Shown in pieces: positions 6,226 through 48,700 of a DNA stretch of 64,000 nt. The DNA lies in assembly GCA_010015805.1 (NCBI GenBank), contig ML978125.1, forward strand, positions 558,001-622,000. Direction: 5' to 3'. The notes below the pieces were generated by a model, which worked only from the letters and a program-made list of their open reading frames with translations, made no database searches and was not told where the DNA came from. The translations under genes and the position numbers were made by a program. The stretch is from Rhizodiscina lignyota (lineage: Eukaryota). How positions within the stretch are numbered: position 1 is the stretch's first letter; the number at the start of each line of letters is the position of its first letter.

Positions 6226-6321
6226 GGGGCAATGGCGCAGCTGGGAGCGCGTTAGACTGAAGCAAAACTTCAGCCATCACATGGAATCTAAAGGTCACCG
6301 GTTCAATCCCGGTTTGCCCCA
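6226..6321 (+). tRNA. tRNA-Phe(GAA) with a 23-nt intron (6263-6285)
   Basis: Cloverleaf: acceptor GGGGCAA/TTGCCCC, D arm GCGC/GCGC, anticodon stem TTAGA/TCTAA with GAA at 6259-6261, T arm ACCGG-TTCAATC-CCGGT. Mature length is 73 nt. Confidence 0.96.
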
Positions 6322-8748: not shown

Positions 8749-8836
8749 TGGACGAATGGGGGATCGAACCCCAGACCTCCCGCAAGTTGGATCACGGTTA
8801 TGCGAAGCGGGCGCTCTACCACTGAGCTATACGCCC
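8749..8836 (-). tRNA. tRNA-Ala(CGC) with a 16-nt intron
   Basis: Reverse complement reads GGGCGTA-TA-GCTC-AGTGGTA-GAGC-G-CCCGC-TT-CGC-A-[16 nt]-T-GCGGG-AGGTC-TGGGG-TTCGATC-CCCCA-TTCGTCC-A. It has the G3:U70 Ala identity pair and a T5 terminator at 8740-8744. Confidence 0.95.
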
Positions 8837-34883: not shown

Positions 34884-37276
34884 TCAAGGCGGCGGCCCAT
34901 TAGCGAAGCTCTTCTTCCTCCCAAACACTTTCCTCGTCCTGCTCTTGTCTCTCTTTCCCTTCCCCTTCTCCCTTCCGTCTTTCGTCGACGGCCTCGACCT
35001 CCTCCCCTCATTCGAGCTCGCATCGTCCATGTACTTGTCCTTGTAAATCCTGATTCCCAGTTAGCACTTCAACCCTACACTCCAAACAAAAGCAGAAAGG
35101 TGCAAGCATACCAACTATTCCCCGCCATACTCATCCCCCTCCTCTCCGCCTCCCTATACAAGCCCGCTGCGCGCTTCAAATCCTTCCGACACCCCACTCC
35201 TTCCGCATAGCAAAACGCCGCCTCGGTCAGCGCATCCGCATCGCCCCAATTGCCCGCGACCTCGAAGCAGCGCAGTCCCAGCGCGCGGTCCTGCCGCACC
35301 CCCCATCCGTTCATGTAGCTCATGCCCAGCTCGTACACGCTCAGCGCGAACTGCGCCTTGTGCGTCTTGCGGTCTGATAGCACGGTGGGGTTTGCTTGGC
35401 CTCCGCTGCGCTTGATCAAGTCTTCGTCGTCCGCGCATTCGAGCTGCGCCGAGTCGACGGCGCGCTGGAGCCAGCGCACGCCTTCGGCTTGTGAGGCGCG
35501 CATGCCCCAGCCGTGACGGCAGGCGAGCGCGTACAGCAACATGGCAGTAGCGTGGCCGGCTTTCGCGGCGATACGGAGATGGTAGGTGGATTCTTGGAGG
35601 GAGCCGGCTTCGTGGAGTTCGATGCCTTTTTGGAGGTGCTGCTCGGGCGTTAGTTCTTGGGCGGTGGGCTCCAGCTGGGTAGGTCTGAGTTGCGCTTTGA
35701 TGGTACTGGCGTCGGAAGAGGTCGTGATTGATGCGTTGCTGGGTGCGATGGAGCGGATCGTTTTGGTCTTGTCGGGGGTGGCGGAGGGAGTTGTGGAGGG
35801 AGTGGAGTGGGTTTGCTTGTGGAGAACGCGGCGCTGGCGGGGGGAGCCGGTGCTGTCGGATGCTTGGTGGATTTGGCGAGGCTCTTCGAAGGAGACGCTT
35901 GTCTGGATGGGGAGGAATGGCGGCGAGTCTTCTACGTTAGGAGTGTGAAGACGGCGGTTATCTGGTGAAGGCGAGCGGCTGAGGGAGATGCGACTATTCT
36001 CGAACGAGTCGGACCATTCGAACTGCTTGAGAATGAAGTCTCCAGGCGCAATCGATTCCCTATTCATAGCTCTTCCGCGAGGCAACGCATATTTAGTGTA
36101 TGTATATGCTTCCACTTGGGCAGGGTTTACATCCGAGTCGCCTGTGAAAGAATCCTCGCTGGCTATGGTGAGGGGAGTCTTGGGCATCTCGTTTGACATG
36201 GGAGTCAATGGGCTGTCACCGGTATTTTGCCTTGAAGGCACGTCCAATGACGGGCGCGTGCTAGTGCTGTCCATGGTACCTTGGCGGTACGAAATGCTGG
36301 TTTCGTTGGTGCCTCTATGATCCAGAGAAGGCCGGCTCGTTGAACTCATTGGTCGTGAGAAGTTGAAAGACGGTCGCGGCGCACTGGTCCAGGAGCTTGC
36401 TGAAGCAGCGGATGGTGATCGAGGTAAGGGTACTGCGTAAGGGATGGCCGGAGAATGCGATCTCGAATAACTAGAGTTTGTCGATGGTTTTCGGGGAGGC
36501 AGAGAGTCTAATGATCCGGCCATGGAGAAAGGCTCGACGTCATCTGAGCTGTCGTAGACTGATCGGATGCTGGGAGAATGCTTGAGAGCATTCATCTGCA
36601 TGGGTGACCTGGGAGGCCTAAGACTCTGGTTTGGAGACGTCACAGAGTCAATTGACAATGAGTCGAAATTTGCAGGTGGCGATATTGCCATTCCTTCCAG
36701 GCGCGAACTGGGTGTCGTTGGAGTCGGGTTGACGATGCGAGTCTCGATTGGCTCTGGCGACACAGCTCTTGGAATATCAAAGTAACTCATAGGCTGCCTC
36801 GTCAACTGTGGCGGCTCGGTCTCCTCTTCTCCAATGCCAGATAAGACAGGCTTGTGGTTCTGCTTGGGAAATGAACCATCATCATTATTGCCTTCGATAG
36901 TCGGATACTGTGACCTTGGGCGAATATCAAGTGGCGACTCATTCAGCTTTCCAGTATTTGGCGTATCATCGGCAGGCGACTCAACCGCGCTGGACGTTTC
37001 AGACGATGTCGACCTGAAGTACCCAGGCCTCTTCGCAAACTCATTTTGGATAGTGAGGGGAGGCAGCCTGCTTATCCTTCGTCCATTCTGCTGCTCTTCC
37101 TCAAACTTCCTCGCCAGCAGGCGACTCTGAAGAGCAAAGGCATCAAGGGGCGACAGCGCAGGCGGAATGTCGCCAGTCTTTGGCGGTGCGAGGTCGCCAG
37201 GTGATTGCGTGGGTATTCGATGCTCGTTGAAGGATGTGCCGGTGAGGTCGAGGTTTCTCGGTCGCTCGAGGACCAT
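34884..37276 (-). CDS. Sel1-like-repeat protein (Dsf2 / S. pombe Nif1-like), 2 exons
   Basis: A long Ser/Pro-rich N-terminus precedes SLR repeats: HLQKGIELHEAGSLQESTYHL, LYALACRHGWG, YELGMSYMNGWG and GNSW|IYKDKY. The last exon ends with TGA at 34884-34886. Confidence 0.88.
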
Positions 37277-38563
37277 TGTGACGTCGATGGTGGTGAGATC
37301 GTGAAGAAGGGTAATTAGGGCAAAGAGTGTGGTTCAGCGACCGACGGCGTTCTCGAGACGTCGCTGCTTCCGCGGTCGTACTCGTTAGGCGTCGGTCGCG
37401 GGTCGGTCGAGTGCGCTGAGTGTATGGCGTGGTTGTGGTGAAGGAGAGTGCTGGAGGTGAAGAGGTGCTTCTTCGCGGACCCTGCAGGACGCTGACATGG
37501 ACGCTTGCAGCGCGTGGGAGAGGCTGAGCTTGTCTTCGTCCAGTGGCGAGAGCGGGTCGTTGGGCTGTCAGACGTTTAAGCTGCGAAGACGGGGAAGGGA
37601 GTGGGCAGACGACAGGGGCGTGTTTCGACTGCTGCGCTGAAGATAGATGCTGGCAGCGGCGCAGCGCGAGCGATTGACAGGCGGCGGATTAAGGATGTCG
37701 GTGAGTGGAAGATTTGAGAGCGTCCGCTGTCGTCGCGGTGGAGGCTCGGGGAAGTGCAGTGTCTTTCGTCAGTCAGTTGGCAGGACTCAGGAGGTGCTTG
37801 CTTGTTGCGTGCTGCCTTTCGCCTTCCTCGTCACGGGCAGCGCAGCGCGGCCCCTGTTCCTTCCAGAACAAAGCGTCGCCCAGTTTCACAGCAGGGAAAT
37901 TGGCCGGCCGCCCAATCACCGCATTCACGCAAGCAGAGCCAGCTCGCATTTGACGGGCGAGATGAGGAAATGGGCCATGTGAGCGACTTCATCTGCGCTG
38001 CTCGCCCTCTCTGCCACTCTCTGCGCGCTCTTTCCCTCGGTGCCTCGCCCTAACTTCTTTCGGCTCGGGGGCGATTTTAGCGCGGCTGCCCCAGACCGAG
38101 TGGTGCCTTCCACGCGCAGATAAAAATATGCGCCACTGTCGTCGCCGGGAAGGTGCTGCAGGCGCTGTTCCTGCATCCAGACCCCGACGATCACCCTCGC
38201 CGCTCTGCACTTCGTGAGATCCACCACGCTCACGTCAAAGGCCCGCCGGAAATGCGGATGCGGAGCGTGGAACATACTGCATTACAGTATCTGAGTGAAG
38301 AGCATTCCTTCGCCGCCCAATCCCACGTTCTAGGCCAGCTCTAAACATAGCCACCAACAGAAGTCGTCACTGTGCTTTGCTACCCGCCGCCGCTCACGCA
38401 TAAGCATGAAGCGATACATGAGATGGTCCTCGCCGATCTGCAGATGCAGAGATAAACCTACATAACCGCCAGGATCTACTATCAGAAAATCTTCCGGCCC
38501 CTCCCGCCGCTTCCGCTCCGCCCTTCTCGGACGATGCGCTCAGAAGTCTTGCCAATTGATCGC

Positions 38564-40027
38564 TCAACTGATCGTCGTGCTCCGCTCAACCTTCTCCCAA
38601 GCCGCCACACTGTCCTCCATCCGCGCCTGCGCCACCTCATCCAGGGACACTCGCCGCATCCCGAGAATCCATCCGACCAGGCCACCCGGAACGAAGCGCC
38701 CAACCAAATCGTAGATAAGGCTGCCCCGGCCCACTCGTACCACCTGTTGTGGATACCGCTGCGTCAAGTTGTCGAACACGGCGTGATGCAACTCGCGCAG
38801 TGAGCTTCCTTTCGGCGAGCTGCCACTCTCGGTGAAAATGCCATTGTTCATGCCGATGCGTCCTTGCGAGAGGAAGTTCTGCGCGTAGAGGTTGCGCGCG
38901 GAGAGTGGCCACATTAGAGTTGCGCTGCTGGATAGAGGCAGCATGTGTGTTCTTTCGCCGATGGTGCTGCAGTCGAATGAGCCGAGACGGAGCTGCGTTA
39001 CTGGTATGCCGAGTGTTCCAAGCTCCCGTTGTAATGTGTGTGTGAACCCTTCCAATGCTCCAACGACGGCGGTCTCCACGCCATGGAATGCAGGCCTGAG
39101 TGATGGGACGATACTCGGTGTGAGGACGAGGACGCGAGCCTTGTGCGCACAGACTGTAGGGAGAAAGGCTTGCGTCGTCGCCACAGTGCCTACCACCTTC
39201 GCGGTCAGTGCATCGGACCAGAGCTCTGCTGATACCGTCTCAATCGGTCCTGACGGGTAAACGAGATCCGGGACGAGTACAAGTCCCGTGAATTGTAAAT
39301 GACGACTCGTGCCGTCGCCGTGCGGTGTGGCCAACAGCTGATTGAACCGCTCAATCGCAAGCTGCGACGTCAAAGGCTGCATATAACCAGTTAGCACGAT
39401 TTGGTGCTCTCTTGCCTTCAAATCATTCTCCTTACCTCAACGAGTTCCAAATTCAACGGCCTGACATCCCCTCGCGCCAACTCATCCACCTCCTGCTCCT
39501 CCTCTACACTGTGCACCACCACGTACACAATGAACCCGCGCTTCTCCAAATCCATCGCCAAAGACTTCGTGACTGCTGCACTCGCCGGCCCCGCTACAAC
39601 CACAACCTCCTTCCGCGCTCCATTCCCCGCCCTCTTCGCCCGCCTACTCCTCCTCCTAACATTCCTCTGGTAATACACCAGCACCGCGCCCGTGCCAAAG
39701 AACGCGACAATAGCAGCTGTGAGGGCGCGATTACGCGATATCCATACTCCTAAACGCTCGAAAAGCGTGGTAGGCACGGGGAGAGGTGGTGCTTGGGGCT
39801 TGGGACGCGCGGACTCGGGCAGCCAGGGCGAGTTGGAGAGGGTGGAGCGGATTTTCGAGGCGAGGAGGTCGATTTGGCGGTCTGTTGCTTCGGCTGCCTC
39901 AGTGGAGAATTTGCGGATGTCTTTGGAGACGGAAGAGAGCTGTGGAAGGTGAGCTTAGACTCGTACGAGAGTTGGAGGGGGGAAAGCTACTGACGAGGTC
40001 GAGGAAGTGCTGGTCGTCGCTGGTCAT
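38564..40027 (-). CDS. DUF1776-family fungal protein (SDR-like fold), 3 exons
   Basis: Starts MTSDDQHFLD; has a TM segment, RRAKRAGNGARKEVVVVAG, SLAMDLEKRGFIVY, YPSGPIET, LRELHHAVFD and VGRGSLIYDLVG. Confidence 0.8.
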
Positions 40028-40310
40028 TGTGATGGTTACTGTGTATGATTAAAGTAATGGAATTGGCAAGAAAAGGGGAATATGAAGAAGAAACGGAGAA
40101 AAGGGTCGCCAATATGTTATTGATATACAGGCCCAGTCCCGATCACGATAATGATAAAGAATGGGATGATGCTGAGTGATGGGGCAGCCCTGTGTCCAAA
40201 AAAACGTGGCGTGACGCGCTAGGATCAAGCCGTTCCTTTTCGGGAGCTTGCATTTCCTTTCCAACGCGCCGTCATCTCCACACTACGCCCTTTTCGAGCA
40301 AATCTCCAAG
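40028..40310. promoter_or_regulatory. Compact bidirectional promoter (DUF1776 / ORC3) with ACGCG MCB-like cores
   Basis: 283 nt separate the divergent ATGs. GACGCG occurs at about 40214 and AACGCG at about 40263; neither is a full ACGCGT. Confidence 0.4.
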
Positions 40311-42618
40311 ATGGACCACGAAAAATGCTTCGTCTTCGAGCCAGAAGACGAACATCCAACGAAGAAGCGGAGAATTGGATCTGATGATTGGATAAATACG
40401 TGGAAGCTGAGAAAAGAGCTCTACGAACAGTTTTGGGCGCATCAACGCTCGAAAATTGAGGTACATAGGTTTTGTCCTTGTATGTTTATAGCCACTGACA
40501 TGTGCGTAGAGCGTTCTTAACAGAGCAAATGAAGAAACTGTCACCAAAGTCTTGGGTTTCATCACGAGCTCCAAGGCTCCAGAATCATCGAAACTCCCAG
40601 CTGGCCTAATCTCAGCTGGACCCAACATTGCTTCTCATGGCGCATTATTCCGCCAGATAGCGACCAAATTGGGAGCTGCTGATGCCACTATCTTTGTGGC
40701 TTTGACCTCGAGCGAGTGTTCGAATCTCAAGTCTCTCTTGAAGAGCTTGATTGTTAAAGGGACGACTCTGGGCGACGACGAAGAAGATGACGCTCAAACA
40801 CCCCATCGAAAAGGACCAAAGCTACTCAACTATGACTTGCAACTCCTTCATGACCATGTCAAGCAGAACGCAATCGAGACTGTTGTGATAACTTTCCAGG
40901 ACACAGAAGCCTTCGACGGTCATGTACTGTCCGAGACTATCGAGCTCTTCGGACTGTGGCGTAACAGAATCCCATTCGTGATACTTTTCGGCATCGCTAC
41001 ATCTACAGACGCTTTTCAAGACCGGCTTTCACGCTCGGCACTGCGGTGTCTCCAGGGAAAAGAGTTCGATGTCGTCCAGACGGACGATCTGTTCGAACAA
41101 GTCTTTCTAACCACCATTGACGGCAACGAGAGGCACTTGTGGATTGGACCAGAACTCATGAGTACGTTTCTAAATCGGCAAAAGGATCACGCCCAGAACG
41201 TCACCGAGTTCATCGATGCCTTGAAAGTATGTTAACCTCACCGAACATCTCCACATTGCGCTGATCATGGCAGTATGCACACATGTGCCATTTCTTCGCC
41301 AATTCTGTAAGCATATTGATGTCCACCGAGGCACATGGCAAAGTGGAGATTTCTCGCCATCTCTGCTACACCTTGCGACACCTGCCCTCTTTCGAAGTGT
41401 GCGTATCTTCCTCTTTAAATGCGAACAATACTTTCAGAGAATCTAGGGGCTTTTTGGTACCTCGACCCGACAGACCTCCCCTCAGTATGCGGCATTATTT
41501 GTTTGATGATGTTGCGCTCGAACGGCTGCTCAACGACACCATGGTCTACAGAGACACCCATTCATTTCCCGACATGGTACGCGCGTTGCGAATGATACGT
41601 GTCATACTCTCGAAGATGCCGAGATACGCTCACCACAAACTGTCGGCCCTGTACACAATGATGATTGGCGGAAATCTCTTGGACTCCCCCATGGTCAAAG
41701 AGATGATTGCGTTCCTGAAGCGAGCACCGTCGAACGTGCTTCTCGAAATACTAAACGATACCATCGGTTTGCTTGTGCTGCATCAAGTCGAAGATGCCTA
41801 CTATTTCGAGACCCGTGACGAGCTTCAAAAGCTCATCAACGACGCTAAAGCCACCGATGCTCCTTTACGCAGCGCGTTTGATGAGCGGAACGAAACTCTA
41901 AGGACTACCGTTATAGCGAAGAAAGTGGAGCTCAGCAAGCAGAAAGCCACGCTATCGAAGAACGACGAGGCATACTCTCAGATTCTGCAACGCTTTACTG
42001 CACGCTTGGACGAGTGGTTGGTTATGACCCTATTCTATCCCGACGAGCTCATGTTCGCAGAGGTCTTCATCTACGACATCAAGTCTCCGTATCGAGCTGC
42101 GTTCTCTCCCAAGACGCGCTTCGCTGTCGAACGCGCCTTGAGCTCACCGCGTGACTACCTCGAGTATGAGTATGACTGCTACGACCTTTCGGAAGAAGAA
42201 TGCGAGAAACGTGAGGTATACCTTTCTACCTCTCTGCAGAATAGCTCATAGCTTATCACCCGCTTACTAAACTGCAAAACAGGCTGCAAAAGAGGCTGCA
42301 GAAGAGGCTCGAGACGCTGCGCTATCAGCTGCAGCGCCCGCAACGGCGATTATGTACCAGCTCTATCTCGAGTCGGGCGCTTTGATGAACGCGAGCGATC
42401 TGTACTCTGCGTATCATGCGATCCTGGAGGAGAAGACGGATGATGAGGAGCTGATCAAGTAGGTCTTTCACAAGTGGGTACAATTTGGAGCGATGGACTG
42501 ACATGGTTTTAGGGCTTTGTTCCAGCGCTCACTGGCAGAGCTGAAGTACATGGGATTCATCAAGGACACGAAGAAGAAGGTGGATCATGTTGCTAAAGCT
42601 GCGTGGAGTGGTCTTTGA
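40311..42618 (+). CDS. ORC3: Origin recognition complex subunit 3, multi-exon
   Basis: Motifs MDHEKCFVF, LPAGLISAGPNIASH, KLLNYDLQLL, RIPFVILFGIATS, RFAVERALSSPRDYL and ATAIMYQLYLESGALMN, ending ALFQRSLAELKYMGFIKDTKKKVDHVAKAAWSGL*. Confidence 0.92.
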
Positions 42619-43874
42619 GTTGCTAGGTGGGTAAGATGGCCACCTCTTCTGCCTGAGGGCCAAAAAGGTGAATGACGAAATGAAAGACTGTGAGAAACCT
42701 CTAGGAGGAGGTATTGAGTGGAGCAATTTGGTGTCGAAACGGAAATGGCCGCCGTACAAGGAGCACTGGTATACGAAGTGACGTTGAAAGCCTCGGCGAA
42801 TACTGCCTGCTCCACAAAGACTCAAGCTCTAATGAGAGCGCGGAGTATACATACTTTGTTTATGACGATAGCAAACTTATCCAGTATACATAATTAGCTC
42901 ATATCTCCCCTGTTGCTTGTGCCTTCCACTCTGTTTCCGTCTCTCGCTTGACCTCCAGATCTGGAACCTGAACGGCCTGATCTCGCATAGCTCTCTGGGA
43001 CTCTCTCGTTCGCTGCTCTTGGCCCTGGAGAACCCAATATGAAGCCTACGACCAGATCTATGTAGATGACAATACATGCGACGGGGAGCAGGATGCGCAA
43101 AAGAGAGCCAAGAGGTACAAGAGATACAAGGCATTCAAGGCACCAAAGGCATTCAAACATTGTCAAAACTAAATCGAGCTCTGATTATCAGTGGAGCTAT
43201 GATACCAGAAGCTGAACCTAAGTTTATATCTTTGTCGCAAGCTGACGCGATCCGCTTCAGTCTGCATTTGGTGATTTGCCTTGGCTGGGCAGCGTTTTGG
43301 AGAATCGGAGAGCACTGGGCAAGCATCAGCATGGCAAACATCATGGCTCGCATAGAGGGCGGTAGAAAGGCAAATAAATGCTCAATTGTCAAACGGCCAC
43401 AATTTCAGCAAATGAGGATATCCTTCAACTCTCTGCTCCCTGTGCGGAGAGGAAATTACACCTTGCATCCCCATGAATTCTGAGCCTTGGCATCATTGAT
43501 ATAATTGCAGTATAGAAGATTACCCATTATAGGGGTTGAATTTAATAGATAAGGTATACTTCTATCAAATACAGAAATTCTAGGTAGGTGATATTCACCA
43601 AAGAAATATCACTTGCCATCTCCTTTGCGCAAGACGATTTGACATGCTGCGTCCGTCTCTGAGAGTGATTTGATCGATCATCGCGGCCATCAGTCTACGG
43701 GTCCAGACTCATCAATGTTACTTATTCAACGTCCAGTATCGATTTAAAATGGCAGATACCGCGATCATGGTTATGAAAATCGTACATGTTTGGTAGCATC
43801 CGCAATCTGAGGACCTTGACCTTGTCCATCGTTCGGAAGGCGAGCCAATCAGGAGCATTTCTTTGACGACACTC

Positions 43875-43927
43875 CACTTCACTTCACTTCACTTTACTTC
43901 ACTTCAATTCACTTCACTTCACTTCAC
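43875..43927. repeat. (CACTT)n pentanucleotide microsatellite, about 10 units
   Basis: CACTT tandem array with two variant units. Confidence 0.9.
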
Positions 43928-44704
43928 ACATAGAATGGACTTTGAGCCCCCTTACTATCTACAAATGATATTCCCATATAACAGCTCAACTAACCGCTAT
44001 ATCCTTGACTATATTAAAAATCAAGTCGCTCAACTGTGGCTCCTTTAGTGATGGTGGTAATGAACTTTAGCAGCTTCACGCACGCACCACTTCACGATAT
44101 CAAGGTTGACTTCAGGCCGTCCAAGTGCTCGAAACGCCATCCTAAACATGATCATGATGAAAGAATTTGTATAGATTACCTTTCGCCCAGGTGATAGTGC
44201 ACGTGGTTCGCAAATATGCCCTGGTCCCCGTGGCCACTCCGATCACCGGCGACTCGGGAGCCATTCACATACTCCAAACTCGTATCATAGTTCCCAAAGC
44301 GGCATGTGTCCCTTGCATTTAGCGCCGGATCGCTCCGAGATCGACGCTAACTGTGCCTCCAGTTTCCAGTTTAAGGTTGCAGCAGCCCAACGCACGGGCC
44401 ATATCGTGATATCAACATTCGATTTTTACTTCGAGTATCATCCCCCCAAGCCAAAAGATGCTGAGAGAAGTTGAATTGAATATCTCCTATGTCTCCTCTT
44501 TACCGGTCGATAGGAATCAGCGCTCGTTGATTGCAGTTCGTGTGCTGATGACTCCTCTTTGCCCGTTGATTTCCGAGACATTTAGTGTCAACCACTAGGG
44601 TAACACCTCGACAGGTGGCAGAAGACACTCATTGGCCCAGCCACCCGAATATCAAAGCATGTCATCCTGGTGCCATTGACGCCACCGCTTTGTAATCAGC
44701 CGCT

Positions 44705-44770
44705 AGGACCAGGTCCTCAAGGTATAAATATTTCTCAACTTCCTTCGCTCTTCCTCTTCTTTTTCTTCAG
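44705..44770 (+). promoter_or_regulatory. Pol II-type core promoter (TATA box plus CT box) with no credible downstream ORF
   Basis: TATAAATA at 44723-44730 is followed by a ~40-nt pyrimidine tract. The palindrome AGGACC-A-GGTCCT lies at 44705-44717. Confidence 0.55.
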
Positions 44771-44774
44771 CACC

Positions 44775-45200
44775 CTCACATCAGCTGTTTGGTCAACGTC
44801 GCCGTTTGGGCGTTAATGAACAAGCCGCCCAAGGTACCTTTCCCTCAGGGTCTGTGTGAGAACCTCGATGTGAGCGAGTCCTCTTATCGAGGCCATTTCC
44901 TGGCTCGTGATGCAATGGGACGCTGTTGCATCGCGGTTCGGGGATGGCTCTCGAGCTCCCTTGAGCGCAGCCAGTATGTGCTACTGCTTCCGGCCATGGT
45001 TGGCATGGGCCAACATGGAGTCGCAGTTTCCTAAACGGCTGGCTTGCGACTCATTGGAGTTAGTTTAGTTGCATGTCTTCTCTTCGCTGTCCAATGTGGT
45101 CTTCTCCCACGTTGTGATGGAACACTTTGCCCCCGACGGGGGGCAGGTCAATCTTTGGAAACCCCCTTTTGAAAAATTCAAATTTTTCACCCTTTTTTTT
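44775..45200 (+). ncRNA. Candidate structured non-coding RNA, class unassigned
   Basis: At least 8 consecutive hairpins, including a 25-bp stem with 7 G-U pairs. There is a possible 5'/3' closing helix, an Sm-like AATCTTTGG and a terminal T8. No credible ORF. Confidence 0.55.
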
Positions 45201-45718
45201 CATTGCTTCTTTCGCCTTGCGCGGGAGGATGAGGAAGAAAAATGGGACTTGATCAGGACAGTCTTCGACTTGCGCCAAATTTCACTTACTCTGAAATGAT
45301 ATGTACTCTATGGCTTACTTACTCGAGCAGAGTTGCTGATGATGGTTGTTCTGTGAGGCAAGTTGAGCGACGTTCCTTGGCTGGACGTTTTGCCTTCCGT
45401 CCTAACCGGATTTGGAGAATGCGACATCTTGAACTACTCGGCATGGTGCAAGTAAGCCTTTTCACAAAGGAGATAAATCTTCTCAGTATTCTGCAATATA
45501 TGTATAATCGAGAATTAGGTCCTGGTTGCGAGAAACGCTGTTGGCTGCTGCGCCGAATTTCACAAGTGTCCCGGGGTCGTCTCTGCAAGTTGCGGCAGCC
45601 TTCTCATTCGGGTCTAGCTACAGCGTGCCAACGCCAACATTGCCTTAGTGGCAGGAGAAGTGCATAATATATTCAGTAAATGCATGTTTCCAATGTACAA
45701 GGATGCTTTTGTTTCCCT

Positions 45719-48700
45719 CTATGCATACATATCCTCATCGTCACCAGCCGCATCGCCAAATGCCCCCGAACCATGGCCATCTACACTCTTCCCTTTCCCT
45801 TTCCCCTTGACAGCACTGCCATTACTCTTCAAGTAGTCCGTCTTGATAACGTACTCGTCCTCCTCATCGTCCTTCTCCTCGTCCACGACGCCATCGGTGC
45901 CCGTCGACCCAGTACTGGGCACGCGATACACGCGCTCCGGACTCTCGCTCGCCTGTGAGCCCGGGCCAAATCGGCCTTTGCCTTTCCCAGCTACATGTGC
46001 GACACCGCTTCCTCCACCGCTTCCCCCACCGCCGCGACCTCGGCTGATACTGCGCGCCTTGATGCGATCCTTCGCTTGTTTCATCCATGACCCTCTTCTC
46101 TCCTTGTCAGCGGCCTGAAGACTGGGGACCACCAGATTCTCCTTCCCACCCGAGCCTGCATTCAGCACTAACGCTTCATTGTTCGCGCTGTCACCAGCAA
46201 CCTCATCCTTCTTATCCTTCGCACCAACCGTCGCGCCCTCAAACGCGCGCCTCACGCGCTCGTAGTGCCACAGCTCATCCTTGCTAACGCTCGGCACGAG
46301 CTCTCTCTTCGCGTTCTCGAAGTCCTCTTCCACAACTACAACCTCCGTGTCCTCGTCGCCTGCTAGGTGGTCGAAGAAATACGCTATTGAAATCGGGTCG
46401 GAGTCGGGAGGTAGTGTTTTGTTGTGCTCTGCGACTTTGGCGTCGACGTTTCTTGCTTGCCGTGTGATGGCTTTGAGCATGGCGTCTGAGCAGAGAGCGT
46501 AGAGGTCGGCGCCGGTGTAGGTGAACGGTAGTGTTGATGCCACTCGGTTGAGGGAGAGCGAGGGGTGGAGGGTGAATCTGGTTTAAGTTGTCAGTTCCCG
46601 TTCCCAAACGCCTGAATGAAAGGTGCACATACTTCCTAGTCAGCGCCTCCAAAACCTTCAACTGCCCCTCATGCGTATCGTTAACTCCCAGGTAAAGCAT
46701 CTTATCGAACCTACCCGGTCGCAGCAACGCCTGGTCAAGCAAGTCCGGCCGATTCGTTGCACCAATGACAAAGACGCCTTGCCCACCACCCGCACCACCA
46801 TCTTCTCCTCCGCCGCTCATGCCGTCCAACTCGGCGAGCAGTTGCGACACAATGCGGTCCATCACGCCGCCACTGTCACCCTGGTTGCCACGTTTCGGCG
46901 CAACAGAGTCAAGTTCGTCAAAGAAGACTACACAAGGACGTGCATCGCGTGCGCGCTGGAAGACTCGTCTGACGTTGGCTTCAGATTCACCGATGTACAT
47001 ATTCAGCAGTTCTGGTCCTTTGACGGAGAAGAAATTGAGGCTGAACTCGGTCGCGATGGCTTTCGCGAGCAACGTCTTGCCAGTACCGGGTGGACCGTAG
47101 AACAGTATGCCAGAGCGCTTCTTCATGCCCTTCGCGAAGAGCTCAGGCCGTGAGAGAGGCAGCTGAATGGTCTCGATGACGGCGGATTTAACGTGTGACA
47201 GACCGCCCACATCGCTCCATTGCACATTCGGGATCTTCGGTGCGCCAATTGAATCCGCGAAGTTCTTGCGTGCGGCGTCGACTGCGGTCGTAAGGTCGGC
47301 AGATGTGAGTGTGAGGTTTGTTGAGTGTCCGGCTAGAGTAAGGTCTTTCAGCGTTACTTCCGCCAATGGCAGTCCGGTATCGATATCAGACTTCCCAGAT
47401 GTGAGCGCCTTGTTGGCACTCGCAGTGATCTTGTCGAGCCTACTTTGTCTAGCAATCAAGGCGCGATCAACAACATCAACCAGATCCCCGGCCACTAGCG
47501 CAGCTGTCTTGACGGCAACCGATGACAGTGCAACGTCTGGCGCAAGACGGATACCAGCATCTTCGACAACGCCACGAAGTATGCCTTCTCGCTCACTCTC
47601 GTCTGGCGCTGTCATTTCCAACTCATGCGTAAAGAGACTACGAATGCCCTCAGGCACCTTCTCAATCTCCGTGGTAGTTGCGATCAGGACTCTCGAGTCG
47701 CCCAGTATTTCCCTGAGTGCGGTAACCATCCTCTCAGCGTCCAACTTCTCAACATGCTTAATCAACAGCGCAGTAAACTCTTTCCCACAACTCAAAGCGC
47801 GTTCCGCTCGAGCTTTTAGGAATGCTTCCGTTTTAGTGTCGCCTCCTTCTGTCAGGATATCAAAAGCGTCAATAGAGAAGGTATGTAATCCAAGGTCTTC
47901 ACACGCTTGCATCGCTGTGGTTGCTTTGCCAATATTACGTTGAGTTGAGGTGAGTAATATAGCAACTGGCGGTAGGCCAAGATGAATGGCACGAGGAGAC
48001 ATCGCAGCAGAGATGAGCTCTCTCAAACGGCGTCGAAGGCTAGAGATATATGGTGTCGGCAGATCTGTAGAGACAATCCCACCCCCAGGTCCTCTGGCTT
48101 GCGATCCAGCAGGCTTTCGTAAGCCAAGATAATATTGCCAAGTATTGCTGACGGTGGGAGGGATCTTTGCCTTTTCGCCTCCGGCCTGAACCATTTTCGT
48201 GTTCGAAGCATCAACAAAAGTGACGCCACCCCAGATGTCTTCCTCTTCCGCCTCAATCTTGTTGGACGATACGATGTCTCCCACTTTGAACCAACCCACT
48301 CCACTAGCCGCAACGGTCTTCCCAGAGTCGGCTCCACACTGCGCGTTGCTTTTCACTTTTGAGATCAGTTCCTCATTGGTCATGTCGTCCGCATTACCTC
48401 CTTCGAAGACCGCTTTGCCAAGTGACTCGTCAACCGCAATACCCACGAGATCTCCTTTCTTCACAACACGTCGTTTCCGCTCGAAGAAATCTTTCAAGCC
48501 GGCGAAGAGACTAGGTTGGACCAAACGGTCAGACGACAGTGGAGTTGCTATTTTTACTAAGGTAACCTCTTTCGCTAATGGTGGTAAGGTTGAGGACGGG
48601 ACTTTGCCTTTTGAGCCTGCATGTGGAACGGAGCCGTCTTTGGTATTTGTCAGTGCCGAAATCTTAAGATGCGTAGGTGAACCAAGGTTTGCCAAAAGCA

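Follow-up and report, generated by a model that had tools for sequence, protein, structure and literature searches.

The question raised by this locus is whether a tight cluster of hairpins between two fungal genes belongs to an RNA gene, to a protein gene or to DNA that folds well and is never transcribed. Well-supported stand-alone structured RNAs and hairpin small-RNA genes are few in filamentous fungi. The locus offers a clean test case, as it has, beside canonical promoter-like motifs, a strand-specific hairpin that far exceeds the background around it, and no credible coding alternative. An initial annotation had proposed an independently transcribed RNA of ~400 nt at this place in the window, by which we mean the whole stretch of 64,000 nt that was analysed. 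Our results point to a plus-strand transcript that probably acts at the RNA level. The best single explanation would be a lineage-restricted plus-strand hairpin RNA with its own TATA/CT promoter, serving as a precursor of Dicer-type small RNAs, and we give this a rough probability of 30%.

Genomic setting of the hairpin cluster

The window is nuclear DNA of a fungus. The hairpins lie in a gene-free gap of ~2.2 kb (~43480-45719) between two convergent genes, and the cluster alone stands out there. Such a gap is long for a compact fungal genome. No frame inside it had gene-like codon usage, compared with scores of +0.3 to +0.45 for the PEX6 exon under the same codon profile. The neighbours had been named as ORC3 and PEX6, and our domain searches bore this out. 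The features around the cluster are as follows.

40510-41232, plus strand: ORC3_N domain (E 4.6e-34) of the ORC3 gene, upstream of the hairpins, with more exons past 42513
43868-43930: (CACTT)n-like pentanucleotide microsatellite ('cacttcacttcactttacttcacttcaattcacttcacttcacttcac') inside the gene-free gap
45719, minus strand: stop of the last exon of an AAA/PEX6-type gene, downstream of the hairpins, in which a 55-nt intron was confirmed
6226-6321, plus strand: tRNA gene of 96 nt, found with Rfam
8749-8836, minus strand: tRNA gene of 88 nt, found with Rfam

Both tRNAs probably contain an intron, because they measure 96 and 88 nt against a model of 71 positions. RIP indices were normal at the locus, and a RIP relic was rejected. 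The stretch was single copy, with one contig of run X1, which looks like the source of the DNA, covering it at a likeness of at least 80% and the other matches measuring 20-43 nt, and on this ground a MITE or SINE was rejected.

The nearest named proteins to the PEX6 of the window all came from Dothideomycetes (Aulographum, 82%; Aplosporella and Macrophomina, ~80%), and the closest PEX6 proteins of all (P0009, P0011 and P0013) showed 85-87% identity. The host is therefore Dothideomycete-like, and the assumption of an Aspergillus is wrong. A further fungal PEX6 (P0012), 82% identical to that of the window, carries the label of a bacterial MAG, Terriglobus roseus; the probable reason is a fungal contig that was binned with bacterial DNA by mistake.

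Parts of the locus

The locus itself was divided into the following parts.

44631-44635, minus strand: ATTGG (a CCAAT box on the minus strand), ~90 nt upstream of the TATA box, a putative promoter element and a 5-mer expected by chance
44723-44730, plus strand: TATAAATA, a TATA-box-like motif read in the sequence, with a function presumed from knowledge of fungal Pol II promoters
44738-44770, plus strand: CT-rich tract (pyrimidine box) with a T5 run at 44760-44764, the likely start region
44745-44877, plus strand: weakly structured 5' leader (z -1.16, 28 of 200 shuffles equal; z -1.48 on the minus strand)
44816-45034, plus strand: ORF of 72 aa, beginning at the first ATG after the TATA box, which is the only ATG in 44731-44830
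44887-44954, plus strand: hairpin A, 30 bp (7 G-U) with a GACG loop, -44.2 kcal/mol (z -7.91 on the plus strand, -5.49 on the minus strand)
44955-45060, plus strand: hairpin B, long and branched, 38 bp, -49.8 kcal/mol (z -3.96 on the plus strand, -4.72 on the minus strand)
45087-45120, plus strand: hairpin C, 13 bp with a 7-nt loop
45128-45145, plus strand: hairpin D, TGCCCCC-GACG-GGGGGCA, a helix of the minimum free energy (MFE) structure
45146-45259, plus strand: 3' region (z -1.48 on the plus strand, +1.59 on the minus strand) with an A/U hairpin at 45170-45189, T5 at 45183-45187 and T8 at 45193-45200, possibly the end of the RNA

The motifs and stems that the initial annotation had listed were all present in the sequence, including TATAAATA at 44723-44730 and the CT tract that follows it. 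These two elements lie 160 nt upstream of the hairpins, in the same orientation as the strand bias described below.

The CT tract, taken as 44735-44777, can pair imperfectly with a GA-rich stretch 450 nt downstream of it, at 45225-45252 (25 nt at 72%, 18 nt at 83%). The 18-nt match has 45225-45242 as the partner of the tract, and this pairing is unused in the MFE structure. A terminal helix or TIR-like ends may result from it, or it may reflect mere polypyrimidine and polypurine composition.

Folding of the locus

The hairpins are statistically exceptional. The core (44887-45145) on the plus strand folded to -125.5 kcal/mol with a z-score of -5.97, and 0 of 200 shuffles were as good. The longer segment 44775-45165 on the plus strand reached -163.2 kcal/mol (z -4.24; 0 of 100 shuffles as good), and 44745-45270 gave z -5.16, so that all three z-scores are far from zero, as the proposal of a structured RNA would have them. 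When 424 windows of 391 nt were compared across the 64 kb, 44875-45265 had the lowest composition-corrected MFE on the plus strand (-4.28 SD, the next being -2.36) and also the lowest on the minus strand (-2.87 SD). As a yardstick for the -4.3 SD of this segment, the second tRNA gene (8749-8836) reached only about -2.3 to -2.7 SD in the same scan.

Hairpin A was the most stable of 9,133 windows of 70 nt on the plus strand (-6.45 SD, the next being -4.92), and on the minus strand it fell outside the 12 best clusters of the 70-nt scan. Its defects are two 1-nt bulges and one 1x1 mismatch, its loop has 4 nt, and there is no pocket of the H/ACA kind. Together, hairpins A and B fold to -95.1 kcal/mol. 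Hairpins C and D (45087-45145) gave z -4.11 on the plus strand and -2.16 on the minus strand, and the 70-nt window starting at 45081 was among the 10 best plus-strand clusters.

The significant structure is restricted to these four hairpins, ~260 nt in all. The view of the locus as one closed domain of ~400 nt is not borne out, since the 5' and 3' flanks are ordinary; the closing pair CCAAGG/CTTTGG is absent from the MFE structure. The proposed 25-bp stem at 44892-44948, with its 7 G-U pairs and GACG loop, was seen in the MFE structure, and the 10-bp stem at 44994-45018, the CAATGTGG/CCACGTTG stem at 45092-45114 and the TGCCCCC-GACG-GGGGGCA helix at 45128-45145 were likewise present. Instead of the small hairpins proposed at 44955-44966, 44967-44987 and 45018-45052, the MFE structure has the one long branched hairpin B. 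The GAGTCGCAG/TTGCGACTC stem (45019-45027 with 45044-45052) is an alternative to hairpin B, and the two are mutually exclusive.

In this region, TGAGCGCA (44962-44969, in the MFE structure) and GAGTCGCAG (45019-45027, in the stem of the initial annotation) compete for the partner 45044-45053. The competing pairings at 44962-45053 may be a two-state element or a coincidence.

Strand bias of the stems

Hairpin A forms 30 pairs, including 7 G-U pairs, on the plus strand, against 22 pairs and no G-U pair on the minus strand. Over 44880-45065, there are 10 G-U pairs on the plus strand and 1 on the minus strand (two-sided binomial p ~0.012). A search of the whole window for inverted repeats with Watson-Crick pairs only did not bring up the hairpins among the 25 repeats listed of the 27 found. 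The G-U excess on the plus strand and the result of this repeat search suggest that the stems are largely of the RNA type. The composition has to be considered in reading this excess, because T exceeds A on the plus strand (159 against 94 in 44745-45270), and this favours G-U pairs by itself.

The minus strand is also significantly structured (core z -4.80, hairpin B z -4.72), which indicates that a part of the signal is plain DNA palindromy. Folding as single-stranded DNA gave z -5.64. The claim that the fold is biased in the direction of the promoter thus holds for the core (z -5.97 on the plus strand against -4.80 on the minus strand) and for hairpin A, and does not extend to hairpin B, which is unbiased.

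Known RNA families and transcript class

None of the covariance models of Rfam 15, which include those for RNase P/MRP, SRP, snRNAs, snoRNAs, Afu_* sRNAs, telomerase RNAs, ribozymes and riboswitches, reached its gathering score at the locus, and in the whole window only the two tRNAs did. Even at E <= 10, the segment 44400-45500 gave four matches at chance level, with 11-20 bits against gathering scores of 48-75. The initial annotation had seen by eye none of the diagnostic motifs of the families that it considered. Our motif search likewise found no Sm site, C/D or H/ACA boxes, m1/m2 of snR30, A/B boxes or P4-type GAAAGTC. A C box (RUGAUGA) was absent from 44700-45300, and the sole one in the gap, at 44154, lacks a D box (CUGA) with the right spacing. 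Weak matches to snR42 and snR83 at 45104-45263 end near an ACA at 45257-45259.

For a telomerase template, the longest match in 43480-45720 was the 7-mer CCTAACC at 45401, and telomere patterns of 8 and 9 nt occurred in the window at chance level and only outside the gap; these patterns assume a TTAGGG-type repeat and a template of at least ~1.5 repeats, and the repeat of the host species may differ. Telomerase RNA, snoRNA, Sm-class RNA, Pol III boxes and the hammerhead core were rejected as candidates, as their motifs are absent. The segment 44766-45166 is free of T4 runs and is followed by T4, T5 and T8. This carries no weight for Pol III, because 457 of 1,272 windows of 401 nt on the plus strand are also T4-free; a Pol III reading drawn from the T4-free body was set aside as not distinctive.

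Coding potential

The 72-aa ORF is probably not a gene. It had no homologue by word search and no Pfam match. In an exhaustive HMMER search against 1.84 billion representatives it had 7 matches, and the 5 examined were translated tandem repeats. These tandem-repeat matches (P0002-P0006) reach E 1.8e-30, and two of them look like translations of what we take to be CRISPR arrays. The ORF appears to be translated palindromic DNA, and tandem-repeat matches of this kind are a trap for searches with orphan ORFs. Its codon score per codon was 0.079, compared with 0.197 ± 0.099 for real genes and 0.014 ± 0.087 for random small ORFs, 20% of which score as high. All three plus-strand frames are open over long stretches because A is scarce. 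A word search with the downstream frame 45069-45296 gave no homologue either.

The best coding score in the gap (+0.30) belongs to a minus-strand ORF at 45063-45281, which had no Pfam match; the score is probably high owing to the purine-rich composition. Splice-like signals were seen on the minus strand (GTAAGT at 45322 and 45289, ACTAAC at 45064, with a CAG ~20 nt on). A minus-strand gene was rejected, as signals of this sort are about as frequent as chance predicts and the ORFs next to them have no coding signal or family.

Search for relatives

A search for paralogues or small-RNA targets within the window gave a longest match of 14 nt. Scanning metagenomes with the locus's 112-aa frame brought up 474 pattern stretches, none of them a relative, and the exact 28-mer of hairpin A occurred 0 times in contigs of prokaryote genomes and 0 times in viral contigs. 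Literature searches turned up no account of a comparable locus in Dothideomycetes.

For comparison with other fungi, 80 loci were collected with a domain scan for the PEX6 lid. Their PEX6 D2 domains are 71-79% identical to that of the window, which makes them relatives at the level of the class. The gap was compared with these loci by blastn and nhmmer, and hairpins A and B by a covariance model built from their single sequence; each search recovered only the window itself. Synteny was sought by tblastn of 62 ORFs of the window (37000-46600) against the PEX6 loci; at E <= 1e-5 only pieces of PEX6 were found, and at E <= 1 nothing meaningful was added and no ORC3 was seen at the PEX6 loci. No covariation was found in this comparison set of class-level, non-syntenic loci. 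Because the relatives are of this kind, the lack of matches in the PEX6 loci says little about conservation.

No equivalent cluster of hairpins was present in the 3.5 kb downstream of PEX6 in the 19 regions scanned, which are those of the 30 best PEX6 loci that remained after 11 with less than 1 kb of downstream sequence. Three hairpins at or below -5 SD were found in these regions, on the opposite strand. One lies in an ORF of GCN repeats, and the two others in unrelated GC-rich or probably coding sequence.

Discussion

The fold z-scores, the plus-strand preference, the absence from Rfam and the want of credible coding evidence are consistent with an independently transcribed non-coding RNA. 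In the mechanism that we propose, transcription would begin near 44760-44780, directed by the TATA box (44723) and the CT tract. A leader of ~120 nt with little structure would precede hairpins A-D (44887-45145), and the transcript would end in the U-rich stretch 45167-45200 or beyond. An RNase III/Dicer-type enzyme may cut hairpin A, and perhaps hairpin B, into small RNAs of ~20-25 nt. The locus would be a single-copy, lineage-restricted and non-protein-coding unit. Everything beyond the fold itself, namely promoter use, transcription, the RNA ends and processing into small RNAs, is inferred.

A locus like those of the fungal milRNAs fits best because hairpin A is a near-perfect duplex of 30 bp with a minimal loop. 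Hairpin A is a foldback without secondary stems or large loops, which the branched hairpin B is not, and the intergenic position of the locus is without overlap with a TE, a CDS or an Rfam family. The predicted branching of hairpin B and the small size of hairpins C and D, which would be too short for a Dicer duplex, are against the precursor mechanism.

In line with the initial annotation, the locus may instead encode an intact structured RNA of an uncatalogued class, with its own promoter, that would work as an RNP scaffold, decoy or regulator. This draws on the same structure, strand bias, promoter motifs and non-coding evidence as the small-RNA precursor and agrees with the lack of an Rfam match; the adjacent hairpins of varied size and the exclusive pairings at ~45044-45053 suit a folded RNA better than a Dicer substrate. 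However, no conserved single-stranded motif (Sm, C/D, H/ACA, m1/m2, A/B or GAAAGTC) was found, nor were relatives or covariation in the 80 class-level PEX6 loci; moreover, the significant structure covers only ~260 nt, and the MFE structure lacks the closing helices that had been proposed. We consider it possible without being likely. A broader form of this proposal, an uncatalogued lineage-specific structured RNA with its own TATA/CT promoter and plus-strand-specific hairpins active at the RNA level, which could be the first polycistronic hairpin small-RNA precursor of its kind or an RNP scaffold without kinship to any Rfam family, seems doubtful to us. The locus may also be untranscribed and functionless DNA, in which imperfect palindromes arose from template switching or small inverted duplications and the TATA box and CT tract are coincidental. 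That template switching makes hairpins in one step is reported in parts of two papers (PMC8794818, PMC10710096). Both strands are outliers (core z -4.80 on the minus strand, the 391-nt segment lowest of 424 there as well, ssDNA z -5.64), no conservation was detected in the 80 class-level PEX6 loci or in the metagenome, prokaryote and viral collections, and 3 of the 19 regions scanned downstream of PEX6 also contain hairpins near -5 SD, in coding or low-complexity DNA. Against this, four independent significant hairpins sit within 260 nt; a 10:1 excess of G-U pairs on the plus strand and stems missed by a search for Watson-Crick pairs only are unexpected under neutrality, and the orientation agrees with the TATA/CT tract upstream. 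We regard the neutral origin, too, as possible without being likely. If the locus is not transcribed, it would teach that z-scores of folding and G-U asymmetry can be misleading when taken by themselves.

The remaining explanations place the hairpins in an mRNA, in an intron or in a known family. An mRNA for an orphan small protein could encode the 72-aa ORF (44816-45034), or 94 aa if 44870-45068 were spliced out. In its favour are the position of the start codon, which is the first ATG downstream of the TATA box, a codon score (0.079) above the 5th percentile (0.036) of real-gene chunks, and the borders GTGAGC (44870) and TAG (45066-45068), whose use would put the ORF in phase with the open frame 45069-45296. 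Such an mRNA is improbable all the same, given the lack of a homologue or Pfam match, the tandem repeats among the examined HMMER matches, the 20% of random small ORFs that score as high and the openness of all three plus-strand frames; besides, T stands at -3 of the ATG and the N-terminus is not like a signal peptide. The same borders could mark a structured spliceosomal intron of 199 nt (44870-45068), a degenerate introner-like element (ILE) in an unrecognised gene. ILEs of Dothideomycetes were reportedly first described in 2012, and the host is Dothideomycete-like. The GT...AG borders bracket hairpins A and B exactly and keep the frame, and the 199 nt, with -95.1 kcal/mol for A and B, compare with ~50-70 nt for regular introns (three confirmed). 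Collemare et al. 2013 (PMC3609843) describe ILEs as exceeding regular introns in length and as folding, by prediction, into unusually stable structures; many near-identical copies also define them there, and the present stretch is single copy. The putative branch site ACTCAT lies inside a stem and differs from the CTGAC or CTGAT of the three confirmed introns in which a branch site is clear. The flanking 'exons' have no coding signal or homologue, and the putative intron does not take in hairpins C and D, so this reading is very improbable. Least credible is a member of a known family, for instance RNase MRP/P, SRP RNA, an snR30-like snoRNA or telomerase RNA, that has diverged too far for the models to detect. 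Size, own promoter and gene-free setting would suit it, and so would the weak snR42/snR83 matches near the ACA at 45257-45259, but nothing reaches a gathering score (11-20 bits at E <= 10 against 48-75), the diagnostic motifs are absent and the best telomere template in the gap is a 7-mer.

Comparison with known systems

The RNAs of RNase MRP/P, SRP, snR30/U17, U3 and fungal telomerase resemble the candidate in being multi-hairpin RNAs of a few hundred nt from stand-alone genes, and differ in that the locus has no match to their models and none of their diagnostic motifs. With ILEs, the locus shares the class Dothideomycetes, unusually stable structure, extra length and GT...AG borders (44870/45068) that keep two frames in phase. 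Unlike ILEs, which have hundreds of near-identical copies, it exists in one, its branch site is weak and its structure extends past the putative intron. Hairpins made by template switching, which include de novo miRNA genes, are similar in their long stems in unremarkable non-coding DNA, as far as parts of PMC8794818 and PMC10710096 describe them, and the process could have given rise to a hairpin locus that is young and unconserved. A fresh template switch would leave perfect Watson-Crick arms on both strands, whereas 7 of the 30 pairs of hairpin A are G-U pairs, on one strand.

The small-RNA precursor is best compared with the fungal milRNA loci treated by Johnson et al. (eLife 2022, PMC9757828). 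Portions of that study describe fungal hairpin small-RNA loci as short hairpins with minimal length between the duplex arms, often intergenic and without an Rfam homologue, and show that annotations are weak, as 394 and 272 of 1,727 reported loci passed minimal rules. Measured against these portions, the candidate differs in having four consecutive hairpins, with a branched B and with C and D too short; the 4-nt loop of hairpin A is extreme for a milRNA locus, and no conservation was seen in the 80 class-level PEX6 loci. It is alike in its intergenic position, in the short unbranched duplex of hairpin A with its minimal loop, in the lack of an Rfam homologue, in its apparent lineage restriction and in being presumably driven by Pol II.
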